From Eledone cirrhosa (Eukaryota), in assembly GCA_964016885.1 (NCBI GenBank), contig OZ024763.1, positions 9,734,001 to 9,798,000 on the forward strand: a stretch of DNA of 64,000 nt, read 5' to 3'. A program made the position numbers and the translations under genes. Positions within the stretch are counted from its first letter, which is position 1, and the number at the start of each line of letters is the position of its first letter. The notes below the pieces were generated by a model. The model made no database searches and was not told the DNA's origin. It worked only from the letters and a program-made list of their open reading frames with translations. Below, piece by piece: positions 8,098 through 62,224 of the stretch.

Positions 8098-8133
8098 TCT
8101 TAACATTTCAGATGCTAGTCCTTCGTCAGAAGA
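8098..8133 (-). ncRNA. Minimal type-I hammerhead ribozyme motif (slightly decayed)
   Basis: Minus strand: UCUU CUGACGA aGGAcuagcaUCU GAAA UG UU AAGA; paralog at 33865 reads GAAACGUA. Confidence 0.55.
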
Positions 8134-9684
8134 AAGAATGGGAAATTAGATAGATTGAAAGGACAGGCAGAGTGGAATCGGAAAAAAATGTTTTATACGG
8201 GAACACACAGTTCCACACTGTAAACATGGTTGTTGTTAGGAAGGACATTTAGCAGCCGTAAGAGCAAGGTACGGCGTGGTCAACTGGTCAGCCCCCTCTC
8301 ATAATGGGACCACCCAGTTCCACACTATAAACATGGTTGGTGTTAGGAATGGCATCCAGTCAAAATACAGTTCCGTTTGAGCAAGGCACGGCGCACTCAA
8401 ATGACCAGACACTCCTTACAACGGGACTACCCAGTTTCACTCTGTAAAGATGGTTAGTTTTAGGAAGGGCATCCAGGTGTAAAAAAAGAGAAACGGCCAA
8501 AATGCAGTTCCATTCGAGCAAGGTACGGCGCGTCAGGACTTGTTTCATTAACGTGGACGACCCATGCAAAGAAGAGAAATGGGACGTTAACCAGTTATAA
8601 AGACCAGTTATATAGCAAAGGTAAATATATAACTCAAATGTATATGGAGAATGTTATACGATAGTATATAACTGCCAAGTAGTTTCCAATTAGCTTTATA
8701 TTATTGGTCCGAAAAAAGGTCGATTTTTTTTAGGGAAAAAAAGTTGGAAAGTGTATATATGTGTGTGTTTGCATATATATAAATGTCTATATGTGTGTGT
8801 GTGTATATATATATATACACATATATATATATACATTTATATATATATATGTGTGTGTGTGTGTATATATATATATATATATATATATAAATGTATATAT
8901 ATATATGTGTATATAGAAGTGGTTACACAATGTGTATATATATATATAAATGTATATATATATATATATTTAAAATAACAGATTAAAGTTTAAGCAAAGA
9001 ATCGCTGCTTTCATCCTACGGTTCTTATATATTTGATATATATTTATCCTTATCGAGCCCTCTTTGGATTTCAGTCTTCAAATTTATTATTATTACTATA
9101 TATATATATAGTAATAATAAATTTGAAATATAATAAATAAATATATATATATATATATATATATGAATAAAGAATGACCAGGATTTAAATTAAATCATTT
9201 AACTGATTGACGAATGTTATAATCGATTAAAATAACGGATATCCATTCTTGCTATATTAATCTCTTCCGAATCTATTAAAAAAACATTAATTGTTTCTAG
9301 TTTAGGCACAAGGCCAGCAATTATCCAGTACATTACTGGTACTTTATTTTATCGACCCCGTAAGGATGAAAGGCAAAGTTAACCTCGGCGGGACCAACAC
9401 ATGTCCATAAGACAATCACGGAAACCCGTAAATGTAAACAAATTCAAATACTGTTGGGGAAACGTTAAAATTTTATGCAAATCAAAACGCAATTTATTAG
9501 TAATAGAATAGTAAACTGTATTTTATTACATTTGTATAAACTTACAGTAGAATAACGTTGCAAATGTTTTAAATATATACATAAATAACATAACAAATGC
9601 GTAAATAACATTATAAATTGCTCGTAATTCGTTCAGGACATTACAAATATGTTTAAACCCTTTATAATAACACAATAATATAAA

Positions 9685-10850
9685 TTTATTGAACAAAAAT
9701 GATAAAGGAAAGACAAAAAAAGGGGGTGGGGTGCAAGTCACCACCAAGTGCGACAATTGACCGCACCTCACACCTTAGGGGTTTACTACACACTCTGAGG
9801 CAAGCCAACACGCTCGCAGCCTTACCACGGGTGTTGGCGAGGCTAAGGGGCTGAAATAACCTGGCACCCTCACTAGACATCTCCTGACACCTCGGTAAGG
9901 TGAGGTGATGGCGAAGCTAAGGGGCTGAAATAACCTGGCACCCTCATAGACATCCCCTGACACCTTGGTAAGGTGAGGTGATGGCGAGGCTAAGGGGCTG
10001 AAATAACCTGGCACCCTCACTAGACATCCCCTGACACCTTGATAAGGTGAGGTGATGGCGAGGCTAAGGGGCTGAAATAACCTGGCACCCTCACTAGACA
10101 TCCCCTGACACCTTGGTAAGGTGAGGTGATGGCGAGGCTAAGGGGCTGAAATAACCTGGCACCCTCATAGACATCCCCTGACACCTTGGTAAGGTGAGGT
10201 GATGGCGAGGCTAAGGGGCTGAAATAACCTGGCACCCTCACTAGACATCCCCTGACACCTTGATAAGGTGAGGTGATGGCGAGGCTAAGGGGCTGAAATA
10301 ACCTGGCACCCTCACTAGACATCTCCTGACACCACGGTAAGGTGAGGTGATGGCGAAGCTAAGGGGCTGAAATAACCTGGCACCCTCATAGACATCCCCT
10401 GACACCTCGGTAAGGTGAGGTGATGGCGAGGCTAAGGGACTGAAATAAGCTGGCACCCTCACAGACATCCCCTGACACCTCGGTAAGGTGAGCTGCCATT
10501 GAAGACAAGTCGCTGCCAGCTGCCCAACTCCACCAAACATCTCGAACACTACAGGCTGGAAAAAAATTATTATTTGATAAGTTCAGCTATTTCTGAATGT
10601 TATTCCATTCGGCAGCAGAAGCAGTGACCCCCACATTCACTGTAGCGTCCATGATATGGGAGGGAGCAAAAGAGTCACTGAGTGTGACGTCCCAGATGAG
10701 ACATCTACCTCTCATCCACAGACAAGGGGTAAGACCGTTTGGTCTCTTCACATCACTTCTGGATAAACCAGCCGGCTCCAGAACTGTGGAGATATTTACC
10801 CGGGTTAGGGCCCGTTTGATGATCAGGTTTAACTCGGTGTGAGAGGAAGG
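9685..10850 (-). mobile_element. CRE-like non-LTR retrotransposon 3' end (restriction-like endonuclease) interrupted by an internal tandem array
   Basis: HTELNLIIKRAL..LEPAGLSRSDVKRPNGLT..WDVT..AAE, F.P..FE.FG, and LFQPLSLANTRGKAASVL; AATAAA on minus at about 9685-9690. Confidence 0.8.
9835..10492. repeat. 73/74-bp minisatellite, 9 copies, with 221-bp (3-unit) higher-order period
   Basis: GGCTAAGGGGCTGAAATAACCTGGCACCCTCA recurs at 74,73,74,74,73,74,74,73-bp spacing. Confidence 0.95.
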
Positions 10851-10941
10851 TGCAGTAACTAAAGATATACTAAGACTATTACACACAGATACACATACTA
10901 CTTGCCAAATTAAAGTTATAGGTATACAACTATAACATAGA

Positions 10942-11648
10942 GTCTGTTTCCCAACCTTATTTTTAGCCAGCGCCCCCTTTGGGCGCAAACTGTTTGTCAA
11001 CGCCCTCCTCCCCTGATACTGCATTCATCTTGCATAGAAAGATGATACTTAGCTATTAGTGCAAAAGTAATTTTAATATTGTCTTAATTTTCCAAAGCCA
11101 AAAATAGTGTTTTAGCTGAGGTGTAATTTTATAATTAAAACAAATTCAAAATTTAAATTTCGGAACATAAGACTTACTACGTTTTCTGGTGAATGACTGC
11201 AGCTGAAATGGGTACAAAATCTAAAACAAATGTGCGTGGTTGGGCCTTTAATCGTCAGGGGTCAATTTAAGTTCAATCGCAGAAAGGAATTCAAAACAGC
11301 AACACACTCACATAGACGCAATCATCCAAACATACATAAACACACATATCAGCCATTCCCAAAAGCCAGTTTCATCCAAAATTCTGACCACCATTCTTTA
11401 TATATTTGCACACAAATACACAGATTCGGCTTTTCGCTTTTATTCATTGTTTGTTTCTTTTCTTTTAGTCGTCTATCACCATTCATTTGTTTTTGTTTTG
11501 GGGGTTTCACTTTAGTGACACTAGTTACACCTGGTACCAAAAAATGGACAATGCCACCGCCCACCTAAGTATATTCACCGCCCCCCAAATGAAATAAAAA
11601 CTCCCAGCTCCCACAAGAGGGAGCTAACGCCCACGTTGGAAAATAGAC
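10942..11648. mobile_element. Probable non-autonomous hAT-type DNA transposon
   Basis: Imperfect TIRs GTCTGTTTCCCAAC / GTTGGAAAATAGAC with GC-rich subterminal motifs; TSD unclear. Confidence 0.5.
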
Positions 11649-11659
11649 ATAGACGTTTA

Positions 11660-60181: not shown

Positions 60182-60396
60182 AATATATTAACAACCGTCC
60201 GGTTGTGGAACCAACCAACCAACCAAAAATTTATAAATTTTAAAATTTATAATTTAATTTATAATAAATTGAAGTGAAAGCAACAGGTGCGTGTGTTTCT
60301 TATTGGCAACATGACCTTCCCAAAGTATAACAATATATATATATATATATATATATATATAAGCAGAAGGAATATTCAATTTGTTGGTAATTTTTT

Positions 60397-60542
60397 GGAA
60401 CACTTCAAAAGGCATGCTTGCTGGGAACAGCAAGAACCCTCCGATACGTCCTGAATATCTGAGGCTGCAGGTAGCGGCTTGATATTCATTTCAACAAACT
60501 TTCCAGTTAAATAACATCAATGGAACAATAATAATAATAATA
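60397..60542 (+). mobile_element. R4/Dong-like LINE 3' end with (AAT)n tail
   Basis: GTLQKACLLGTARTLRYVLNI* (stop 60460-60462), short UTR, AAT repeats. Confidence 0.75.
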
Positions 60543-61264
60543 GTCACAACTAACAGAATGGCCCAGCATTGCTCGGGATTCTAAATATAGATTGGCATGT
60601 TTATAATGTGTATAATGTGTATAAAAACCAGATTAAGGTAGATTATCGTGGTTTACTTAAGACCTGATCACTCCGGACTCGGCCGAGGCCCAAATGGTAT
60701 CTGTTACAATATTTCTAATGAAAGACACTGCCAATCATTTAAACATTTTTTAAAATATTCAAGCATTTTGGAAAGATTTAGGTTTTTAGATAAATACTAG
60801 CAGAATGGCCCGGCGTTGCTCAGGATTCTAAACATAGATTGGCATGTTTATCCCTCCTTTCTGAAACAGTTTTGTCGTATGTTCACCAATTGATGCAGAA
60901 GTCCTAATAAAAAGGGAAGTTGCCTTGGGTGAATAGGCAAATAATTTTCCATTAAGATTTTTCAAAACCACATAATTGCGTTCCCTCTTTTTTTTTGCTG
61001 TTGGTGTGATAGCAGCGGTGGTCGTATTACTAACACAGTCTCATCCTTCTTCAGCCAATCGTGTATATCCCCTTCTGCCTCGTCAGCAATGAGAACAATA
61101 TTTGCTCTAGGGTTCTTATATATTTATCCTTATCGAGCCTCATGAAATAAATACGTTTGTTTATATTTTGTTATTGTGTATGCAAAAATATCTGTATACA
61201 AATATATAATTATATATATATAATATATATATATATATATATATTATATATATATATATATATA

Positions 61265-62037
61265 TTCATCATCATCATCATCATCAACGTTTAACGTCCG
61301 TGTTCCACGCTTGCATGGGTTTGGACGGGGGTATTCCCACTTGAGGCAAGAGTGATTGTCTTGCTCGCATAGGACTGTCTGGCAGGTTTTCTACAGTTGG
61401 ATGCCCTTCCTAACACCAACCACATTTACAGTGTGGGTCTGGGAGGTTTTTACCGTGTTGCCTACACGGCCACATTACAGCGTGGACTGTGTGTTTTTTA
61501 GTCGTGACACCTACACGATCTCATTTGTTTCGGCCTGGATGGCGTGGCACCAACATAACTTTACATAGAAGGGGGTGGTGTGGATGGGATGGGGTGGGTG
61601 GGTGGGACGGGGTGTATTTTGTTAGAGATGCCTACTGGCTGTAGTAGGTTTTACTATGTATTTAGGTAAGGCGGGTCTTCTCTGTTACTGAGTACCGCCA
61701 AAGGTCTCGGTCCAGTGACATTGTCTTGGAGAGGTGTAAGTGTTTATCAGCTCGTCCCAGGTTTTTCTAGGTCTGCCTATTCCGTGGCTACCGTCTATCT
61801 TTATTGCCCTGCACTTTGTTATACAGCTATCGACTTTCATGCGCATCACGTGTCCATACCAACGTAGCCTTCTCTCGAGTAAACAACATCTGATCCCTCT
61901 TATTTCTAATTTTTTCCTTAGTTCGTTTATGCTTTGCCGTTCACGTATATTACTGTTACACATCCAGCGGAGCATGCAAGCTTCGTTCCTCTCTAGTCTG
62001 CGTATATCCTCTGCACACAATGCCCAGGTCTCACTGT
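61265..62037 (-). mobile_element. RTE subfamily A 3' part
   Basis: RRLRWYGHV, GRPRKTW; (GAT)n tail. Confidence 0.88.
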
Positions 62038-62173
62038 ATATTATATATATATATATATATATATATTTATTATATATATATATATATATATATATATATA
62101 TATATATATATATATATATATTATATATATATATATATATTATATATATATATATATTAAAATAACAGATTAA

Positions 62174-62224
62174 AGTTTAAGCAAATAATTGCTGCTTTCA
62201 CCCTTAACGGGATCTTCTGAAACT
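62174..62224 (-). ncRNA. Hammerhead with CAGAAGA core
   Basis: AGUUU CAGAAGA uCCC/GGGu GAAA GCAG..UUGC UU AAACU. Confidence 0.66.

Follow-up and report, generated by a model that had tools for sequence, protein, structure and literature searches.

The closest described counterparts of the repeats analyzed here are the hammerhead ribozymes in the pseudo-long terminal repeats (pLTRs) of Penelope-like elements (PLEs) reported in PMC4209133, where multiple families share a genome, mostly as single truncated copies, with opposite-strand pairs 100–700 bp apart and rare tandem pairs ∼3–4 kb apart that flank a reverse transcriptase (RT) open reading frame (ORF). We analyzed a 64,000-nt stretch of the Eledone cirrhosa genome (assembly GCA_964016885.1, contig OZ024763.1, positions 9,734,001 to 9,798,000 of the forward strand; hereafter the window), which holds ∼33 hammerhead motifs of ∼15 families (labelled F1 to F15), half of them descriptor-intact. 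Very probably, these motifs are type-I hammerheads situated at the 3′ end, in the pLTR, of ∼15 PLE families and of small derivatives of such elements. The published arrangement recurs here, together with the palindromic helix III, the extra base after A9 and the U3-A8 variant of the published motifs; the PLE–hammerhead link, truncated single copies, opposite-strand pairs and U3-A8 cores are thus already in print (PMC4209133). Scale separates the two cases: that source gives ∼2,000–9,000 minimal motifs each for schistosome, coelacanth and Xenopus, whereas the present genome holds at least 53,828 exact matches with a canonical core plus 16,903 of F5, and an estimated 160,000–350,000 motifs. A family-wide U4A core, as found in F5, is not mentioned in the parts of PMC4209133 consulted.

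Like the Hydra clade of PLEs (PMC8557442), F1, F4 and F5 have a GIY-YIG endonuclease at the C-terminus, a CxCX5C linker, terminal CxxC and CxH motifs, a 3′ hammerhead and (TA)n targets, with DKT in F1 and F5 and RWR for RWK in F5. The linker, DKT, RWK and terminal motifs were read from translations of the three families, the N-terminus of F4 lying outside the stretch read. Unlike the published elements, which are generally <3 kb, the units found here measure 3.26–3.68 kb and have long AT-rich 3′ regions, F5 has an intron of 750 nt in its pLTR and genomic copies from which it has been spliced out, and copies number in the tens of thousands. A pLTR intron has been reported for Penelope and Chlamys and predicted for others (PMC8557442).

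Families F6, F10, F13 and F15 share with Neptune and Nematis PLEs a cysteine linker, two cysteines inside GIY-YIG, a 3′ hammerhead, a tail and (TA)n targets; F10 differs in having an additional overlapping upstream ORF of 476 codons. F3 and F11 resemble the animal non-long-terminal-repeat retrozymes (PMC7229834; bioRxiv 10.64898/2026.07.22.740005), which both sources treat as PLE derivatives: all consist of non-coding units joined head to tail, each bearing one type-I hammerhead, with a low GC content and a self-paired monomer, and range from monomers to multimers. In contrast to published units of 150–450 bp, those of F11 (420–490 nt) lie at or above this range, and both F3 and F11, known here from DNA, use (TA)n as insertion site and show fold-back ends of the PLE type. 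A mostly open-access literature search for hammerheads in octopus or cephalopods returned only PMC8557442 and a twister-ribozyme paper, and neither 'ribozyme' nor 'hammerhead' occurs in the main text of a 2026 Octopus vulgaris repeat annotation (PMC13282606). Searching for 'U4A' with 'hammerhead ribozyme' returned nothing, subscription papers and supplements being largely outside that search.

Hammerhead motifs of the window

The window is AT-rich and laden with simple repeats; its long ORFs represent fragments of an RTE-like long interspersed nuclear element (LINE) and of Tc1/mariner elements, or repeat read-through. An earlier note on this DNA had listed 26 motifs of the type CUGANGA...GAAA, mostly lodged in (TA)n tracts at about one per 2.5 kb, and had attributed them to a large and diverse population of non-autonomous, ribozyme-bearing retroelements missed by ORF-based annotation. 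A hammerhead-like motif is indeed present at every one of the 26 coordinates and on the strand given. Motifs were called with a strict type-I descriptor (CUGANGA, stem II, GAAA, stem III, UH, stem I) and with a relaxed version that also permits an additional base after A9 and a U·U closing pair. The strict descriptor yielded 12 matches in the window and none in either 40 block-wise dinucleotide shuffles or the reversed window; the relaxed one yielded 17, compared with a mean of 0.017 and a maximum of 1 in 60 shuffles. All 17 relaxed matches belong to the 26 sites, and three further sites pass the test of helices I–III (helix I open) when a CAGA core is allowed.

The full core (C3 U4 G5 A6 N7 G8 A9 / G12 A13 A14 A15.1 / U16.1 H17) is found at 21 of the 26 sites. 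CAGAAGA stands in place of CUGANGA at 31925, 53419, 56545 and 62174, GAAG replaces GAAA at 23707, and at 8098, 12961, 22999 and 50930 an intact core is accompanied by broken or irregular stems, with homologous copies elsewhere. The other nine sites beside the 17 that pass the descriptor are these four CAGAAGA sites and five decayed or irregular ones, and about eight motifs had been overlooked: cores at 17181, 20642 and 39477 (all minus strand), U3-A8 variant cores at 32167 (minus), 32463 (plus), 22469 (minus) and 13131 (plus), and a decayed copy near 33850 (plus). Helix III is mostly a short palindrome in the window (GUAC, CUAG, CAAUUG or UAUAUA). A U10.1·U11.1 closing pair, a tolerated variant (PMC3088659), occurs in F4, F5, F10 and F11.

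Chance matches in AT-rich repetitive DNA might be invoked, given that the bare heptamer CUGANGA is just 1.7-fold more frequent in the window than in shuffles (49 versus 28.6) and that no Rfam hammerhead model reaches its gathering score. This explanation, to which we attach practically no weight, is already refuted by the descriptor counts given above, by reversed-pattern controls that returned zero matches genome-wide for each family, and by the location of the motifs at PLE 3′ ends. The heptamer is enriched mildly and the full descriptor strongly, so that the signal resides in the helices. Comparison with shuffles and with Rfam had both been suggested in the earlier note; the former disposes of chance, and the latter gave two sub-threshold Hammerhead_HH9 matches (25.9 and 24.2 bits, cut-off 52). 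The association with (TA)n was likewise borne out: (TA)4 or longer lies ≤300 nt downstream of 25 of 29 cores, compared with 34% of random positions. Four of these 25 cores are F1 copies with TATATATA inside their own helix III, and two more lie ≤42 nt from the tract. In 26 copies of F1, 95.3% of stem cells are paired, and seven stem II pairs are changed on both sides (by a shuffle control that ignores relatedness); the F1 covariation score, uncorrected for relatedness, is 0.305 versus 0.206 in shuffles, and none of 500 shuffles reached it. The hammerhead motifs in the window are real and far above chance.

The motifs and the insertions that contain them are listed below; "added" marks those absent from the earlier note.

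8098–8133, minus: F13 minimal hammerhead, decayed; probable Neptune-like parent; family with 2,630 exact matches
12355–12548, minus: F1 hammerhead (12488–12548) with 3′ end/tail of a putative Hydra-type PLE, terminating in (TA)n; parents L146, L223
12961–13011, minus: F2-related hammerhead with decayed stem II; no parent found
13128–13164, plus: U3-A8 hammerhead (UUGAAAA family) with shortened stem I; added; intact relatives in L060, L073, L076
14083–14510, minus: putative F3 retrozyme unit whose 5′ end forms a fold-back; hammerhead 14243–14288
16984–17186, minus: F2 hammerhead (17112–17186, long stem II) and 3′ end; added; no parent found
20445–20647, minus: F2 hammerhead, duplicating the 17181 copy at 96% identity; added
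22437–22472, minus: F14 U3-A8 hammerhead at a fold-back junction; added; second copy in L148
22685–22788, plus: F1 hammerhead (22685–22745) and 3′ end
22999–23081, minus: F12 hammerhead with long helix III and irregular stem II; no parent found; homologue in L163
23192–23578, minus: putative F3 retrozyme, >1 unit of 315 nt; hammerhead 23353–23394; HH9 24.2 bits
23672–24559, minus: 3′ fragment of a putative F4 Hydra-type PLE, with broken GIY-YIG (23918–24559), 3′ untranslated region (UTR) and hammerhead 23707–23742 (GAAG)
25396–25627, plus: putative F3 retrozyme, 5′-truncated and (TA)n-flanked; hammerhead 25426–25467
29478–29545, plus: F7 hammerhead; no parent found
30010–30120, plus: F1 sister-subfamily hammerhead (30010–30076) and 3′ end; parents L227, L236
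30210–30319, minus: F1 sister-subfamily hammerhead (30253–30319), facing the 30010 copy
31853–31995, plus: F5 fold-back remnant with decayed CAGAAGA core at 31925
32002–32643, no single strand: fold-back pair of a putative F3-sister retrozyme, U3-A8 hammerheads 32124–32174 (minus) and 32457–32505 (plus); added; HH9 25.9 bits
33577–33621, plus: F8 hammerhead, an incomplete inverted copy lying upstream; the loci examined yielded no second copy
39245–39479, minus: 3′ end of an F15 Neptune-like PLE; hammerhead 39442–39479, weak stem I; added; parents L041, L063, L096, L074
44123–44337, plus: 3′ end of an F6 Neptune-like PLE; hammerhead 44123–44165
50930–51023, minus: decayed F9 hammerhead, its stem II very long, forming one arm of an inverted pair; no parent found
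52485–52591, plus: F1 third-subfamily hammerhead (52485–52550); putative parent by homology only
52835–53032, minus: F1 hammerhead (52972–53032) with tail
53309–53548, minus: 3′ end of a putative F5 Hydra-type PLE with fold-back; CAGAAGA (U4A) hammerhead 53419–53469
53851–54155, plus: F6 fold-back insertion; hammerhead 54019–54061
54545–54747, minus: 3′ end of an F10 Neptune-like PLE; hammerhead 54709–54747; 4.2-kb two-ORF parents L164, L165
56426–56709, minus: F5 fold-back insertion; CAGAAGA hammerhead 56545–56593
56709–57320, plus: putative F11 retrozyme, ∼1.45 units long (420-nt monomer); hammerhead 57017–57059; tandem arrays L068, L078
58998–59698, minus: 3′ fragment of an F6 Neptune-like PLE, with broken GIY-YIG end, 3′ UTR, hammerhead 59210–59251 and tail
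59923–60332, plus: F6 insertion with inverted endonuclease-linker scrap (59923–59991, minus); hammerhead 60139–60181
62158–62224, minus: F5 3′ end with CAGAAGA hammerhead 62174–62224, terminating in (TA)n

Tail pieces of F5 lacking a hammerhead lie at 44337–44412, 9016–9110 and 31730–31803, so that insertions may be shorter than the ribozyme; 3′ ends of the F6/F15 type without a hammerhead are seen at 16826–16961, 25815–26001 and 29109–29184. The blocks 15856–18600 and 18940–21850 are near-duplicates, each with an RTE LINE fragment, an F2 end and TA-flanked ends, and share 96% identity around the F2 motif; a mariner-like transposase remnant (19194–20370) lies between or within them. A second, Tc1/mariner-like remnant at 43182–43910 (minus; 242 codons, recognised by eye, with no Pfam match) abuts the 5′ end of the F6 insertion at 44123. 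The window further contains minisatellites at 9830–10492, 34308–35555 and 36819–37562 (units of 74, 46 and 48 bp) and a 66-nt near-perfect inverted repeat at 28755–28821.

Coding parents and tandem retrozymes

Coding relatives of the short repeats were found among loci elsewhere in the assembly (numbered with the prefix L). F4 relatives end in the same hammerhead followed by (TA)n or a tail, as shown in 15 of 20 loci; long F4 copies encode RT and endonuclease with a hammerhead on both sides, and in the parents L031 (585 amino acids) and L032 (591 amino acids) RT is followed by a C-terminal GIY-YIG in one ORF. In the window itself, a broken GIY-YIG coding end precedes the 23707 motif by 176 nt. 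The F5 parents L140–L144 measure 3.26 kb between hammerheads, and L140 has an RT-endonuclease ORF of 645 amino acids; direct or inverted F5 hammerhead pairs 3.2–4.3 kb apart flank this 645-codon frame in five of seven F5 stretches. The F1 parent L146 (3.68 kb) has its RT-GIY-YIG ORF in pieces, and the F1 subfamily parents L223, L227 and L236 carry the endonuclease 1.2–2.0 kb upstream (three of 20 loci, with two more matches further away); endonuclease-bearing loci thereby cover two of the window's three F1 subfamilies. The parent proteins of F1, F4 and F5 are 38–44% identical to one another and have no cysteine pair inside GIY-YIG. A search for protein homologues returned 1,568 relatives. All three families display insertion at (TA)n, a hammerhead near the 3′ end, a tandem or inverted pLTR and an optional tail. 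Judged by these sequences, the short F1, F4 and F5 repeats are best described as 5′-truncated ends of Hydra-type PLEs, and the absence of ORFs from short copies is explained by AT-rich 3′ UTRs of 1.0–2.0 kb. Identity as Naiad PLEs, whose endonuclease is N-terminal and which lack a canonical hammerhead, was ruled out, the endonuclease being C-terminal in every parent found; the same position excludes a Naiad origin of F6, which its endonuclease end had suggested.

The second group of parents comprises L115 and L167 for F6, L164 and L165 (4.2 kb, two ORFs) for F10, L041 and L063 (also L096 and L074) for F15, and L186 for F13, in which a GIY-YIG ORF ends 397 nt upstream of the hammerhead. Translations of L115, L164–L167, L041 and L186 revealed a CX2-5CxxC linker, a cysteine pair within GIY-YIG and a C-terminal endonuclease. 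These motifs mark F6, F10 and F15 as Neptune-type, the linker being common to Neptune and Nematis; F13 is probably Neptune-type as well. The additional F10 ORF overlaps the RT-endonuclease frame (L164:3428–4855 and L165:3438–4865, both minus), an overlap that suggests a frameshift. No coding parents of F2, F7, F8, F9 or F12 were found among the loci examined. An F2 inverted pair 3.2 kb apart encloses an ORF that is unrelated and LINE-like.

F11 forms head-to-tail arrays of non-coding units, each with a type-I hammerhead, spaced 420–490 nt (L068 and L078, with arrays of seven and of at least 15 units and additional arrays on one contig). For F3, a dimer with units spaced 315 nt was found (L169), and in six of 15 loci the 3′ end continues into the unit's own start. 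The monomers of F11 (z −3.66) and F3 (z −2.86) each fold better than all 100 shuffles. Their tandem non-coding organization identifies F3 and F11, at the level of sequence, as retrozymes. The same test failed for F1, F4, F5, F6 and F10, for which coding parents exist.

Could most motifs then belong to dedicated non-autonomous retrozymes that spread through circular RNA? Such an account is true for F11 and F3, and F11 has the highest exact count of all families (24,967); just two window insertions matched parent ORFs at the protein level, and five families are without a parent, among them F2, whose copies share ≥450 non-coding bases upstream and in 15 loci revealed no ORF. Against this stand the coding parents of families that cover 17 of the 26 sites and the long AT-rich 3′ UTRs, which account for the lacking ORFs. 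Moreover, at 25 further F5 loci the match to the parent ends anywhere from a few bases to >1.5 kb upstream of the hammerhead, so that 5′ ends vary continuously, and an insertion with a single hammerhead is unable to release a circle. We consider the retrozyme explanation quite improbable as a general one, and for the majority of sites it is already refuted. Of the 26 sites, 17 are ends of coding PLE families (six F1, one F4, four F5, four F6, one F10 and one F13), four are retrozyme copies (three F3 and one F11), and five (12961, 22999, 29478, 33575 and 50930) have no family parent. The earlier proposal of a large and diverse hammerhead-bearing retroelement population invisible to ORF-based annotation is hence supported, and its term 'non-autonomous' applies to the four demonstrable retrozyme sites and not to the 17 in families with coding parents.

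Several observations weigh against assigning the motifs to PLE 3′ ends as type-I hammerheads. No Rfam model recognised them at gathering score, two of five F1 covariation measures fall within the shuffle range (134 of 500 and 76 of 500), two-sided change is absent from helices I and III of F1, and single-copy folds at nine sites favour the hammerhead only weakly (z +0.70 to −2.50). Pfam recognised neither RT nor GIY-YIG in four of five parent proteins, the exception being GIY-YIG in L146 (22.4 bits, just under the cut-off), and the Hydra and Neptune labels rest on motifs rather than on a tree. Five of the 26 sites lack a parent, F2 shows none in 15 loci, and that of F13 is a single locus among 20.

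The assignment to PLE 3′ ends also suggests how the motifs could have accumulated. The 3′ ends are fixed at (TA)n and may carry a tail, the 5′ ends are ragged, junctions of the fold-back kind occur, and copies from different families adjoin one another in TA tracts. PLE endonucleases target (TA)n, and linker cysteines have been proposed to direct this targeting (PMC8557442); copies would thus be likely to accumulate locally, the pile-up reflecting targets shared by different families. Extrapolating from PMC11167929, the PLE protein would nick AT-rich DNA and reverse transcription would start immediately behind the pLTR, at two internal sites, yielding the tail. Each PLE insertion, however short, would then begin with the hammerhead region, and copying would usually stop early, leaving the ribozyme-bearing tail. 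F3 and F11 may borrow the PLE machinery. Hammerheads with a short palindromic helix III cleave weakly and as dimers (PMC4209133), so that a single copy is predicted to cut little; the ribozyme would trim the tandem precursor RNA slowly and mostly as a dimer. It is likely dispensable for insertion, and most copies in the window are likely inert fossils.

Genome-wide abundance and core variants

Exact family patterns were counted across the assembly (2,996 Mb, 1,796 contigs). In addition to the F11 matches, we found 19,189 of F1, 16,903 of F5, 5,504 of F10, 2,630 of F13, 865 of F3, 408 of F2 and 265 of F6; the eight families together amount to 70,731 (the canonical-core and F5 matches given above). 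A sample of 40 blocks of 10 kb at fixed positions on 20 contigs (399.4 kb) contained 53 relaxed matches, including 22 in two tandem arrays, and none in five shuffles. With arrays counted once, this corresponds to 83 per Mb or ∼250,000 genome-wide (bootstrap 158,000–345,000), and with all counted to 133 per Mb. Sample rates agree with genome-wide ones for the dispersed families F1 (three seen, 2.6 expected), F5 (two, 2.3) and F10 (one, 0.7); F11 is over-represented (21 seen, 3.3 expected), which makes the array-once estimate the safer one. The four largest contigs are about four times poorer than the others (55 versus 228 per Mb with arrays, ∼120 without).

At 266 per Mb, the window exceeds the genome average ∼3-fold by descriptor and ∼10-fold by exact patterns (16 seen, 1.5 expected), and is a hammerhead hot spot. 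The density of one motif per 2.5 kb stated in the earlier note thus holds inside the window and is local, the flanks (40 kb in total) containing two relaxed matches. For comparison, 126,247 type-I motifs are given for the axolotl and ∼5,000 for a mussel (PMC7229834), and the axolotl genome measures 28.21 Gb (bioRxiv 10.64898/2026.07.22.740005); these figures suggest a density here some 20 times that of the axolotl per Mb, a rough comparison because the descriptors differ.

Hammerhead families absent from the window, some with a very long stem II, were encountered at L071:411, L070:8182, L043:1889, L051:2423, L065:4235, L073:6009 and L073:7317. A compensated U3-A8 core occurs in at least five unrelated families (L041, L054, L060, L069, L073, L076), and a family with a fixed U4C core (CCGAAGA), whose helix III is palindromic, was seen at L063:4759, L068:4736 and L076:1000. 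The sample contains 12 U3-A8 matches, no U3·G8 and three scattered C3·A8; the 12 were counted under a looser stem I rule, which also gave four U4C and three U4A.

The U4A core and pLTR intron of F5

Position 4 of the F5 core is A in all 100 matches listed of the 16,903, and in all eight copies encountered within loci chosen on other grounds; a looser F5 pattern gave 702 matches with a base other than A. A canonical CUGA subfamily of F5 was considered and rejected, as all six CUGA loci examined are fold-back palindromes. Fold-back junctions of F5 recur exactly at core position 4 (L104–L109, L171, L172), the palindrome mimicking a CUGA core. Helix III of F5 is comparatively long and non-palindromic.

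U4A breaks the CUGA turn, and cleavage by F5 is consequently predicted to be crippled, its core being weak or dead. Ambros and Flores reportedly observed in 1998 that a viroid hammerhead is active with U4C and inactive with U4A. A saturation screen carried out on another hammerhead found low activity for every single change in the CUGA turn (PMC9901934). Together with the at least 16,903 exact copies of F5, this screen lends some credit to the idea that these hammerheads are relics or passengers without activity, whose fold either acts as a signal for protein binding or packaging or is simply carried along, cleavage having no role here. Similarly, hammerhead mutants of the anole Poseidon element showed unimpaired insertion in vitro (PMC11167929), and eight of nine Xenopus retrozyme dimers remained uncleaved (bioRxiv 10.64898/2026.07.22.740005). 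Yet ∼15 families with unrelated stems retain the core, and the occurrence of compensated U3-A8 and U4C families, with no uncompensated U3·G8, matches cleavage chemistry. We therefore regard the passenger explanation as unlikely, although not far-fetched.

The F5 pLTR contains an intron of 750 nt (GTAAGT...CAG; L140:3334–4083), which most genomic F5 copies retain and which is spliced out in L173–L180. A pattern joining the donor exon to the hammerhead has 266 genomic matches. Of the 100 junctions listed, 98 connect the donor with either of two acceptors that lie 4 nt from each other, 89 using a site 103 nt upstream of the core and nine a site 4 nt before that; the other two are unrelated. The spliced joint is also present in contigs of run X1. 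Among four contig runs compared, depth at the hammerhead rises more steeply in X4 than in X1, an observation given no weight since contigs reveal neither ends nor levels; a single low-depth contig of run X6, which bears a different organism label, matches the F5 core throughout and was likewise given no weight. A run search with F5 listed no RNA run. Intron-less genomic copies of this kind indicate that F5 moves via an RNA intermediate. The possibility that U4A itself creates a splice acceptor in the core (...UUUCAG) was rejected: it is used in none of the 100 listed junction matches and in none of 15 among 51 contig matches.

Taken together, to a PLE or ribozyme specialist the basic observation is unsurprising and of a kind already known; what goes beyond the known arrangement is the abundance, the range of core variants, one of them (U4A) common to a whole family, and the Hydra-type pLTR intron, which is spliced out of some genomic copies and retained in others and extends a feature described for Penelope and Chlamys. 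PLE tails also constitute a large repeat class below Rfam thresholds and are in this respect relevant to annotation. Tentatively, we place this genome among the most hammerhead-dense known (∼80–130 per Mb, 250,000–400,000 motifs), with canonical, U3-A8, U4C and U4A cores side by side. On the same tentative reading, F5, whose helix III is stable and monomer-competent and whose U-turn is broken, and which has reached ∼17,000 near-identical copies, would represent either an active U4A core rescued by its context or a PLE that spreads as well or better with a silenced ribozyme. The role of PLE hammerheads has been called unclear (PMC8557442). Related Hydra-type families, canonical F1 and F4 and U4A-bearing F5, coexist at similar copy numbers in what amounts to a natural experiment, and either outcome for F5 would, if true, inform the question of PLE hammerhead function.

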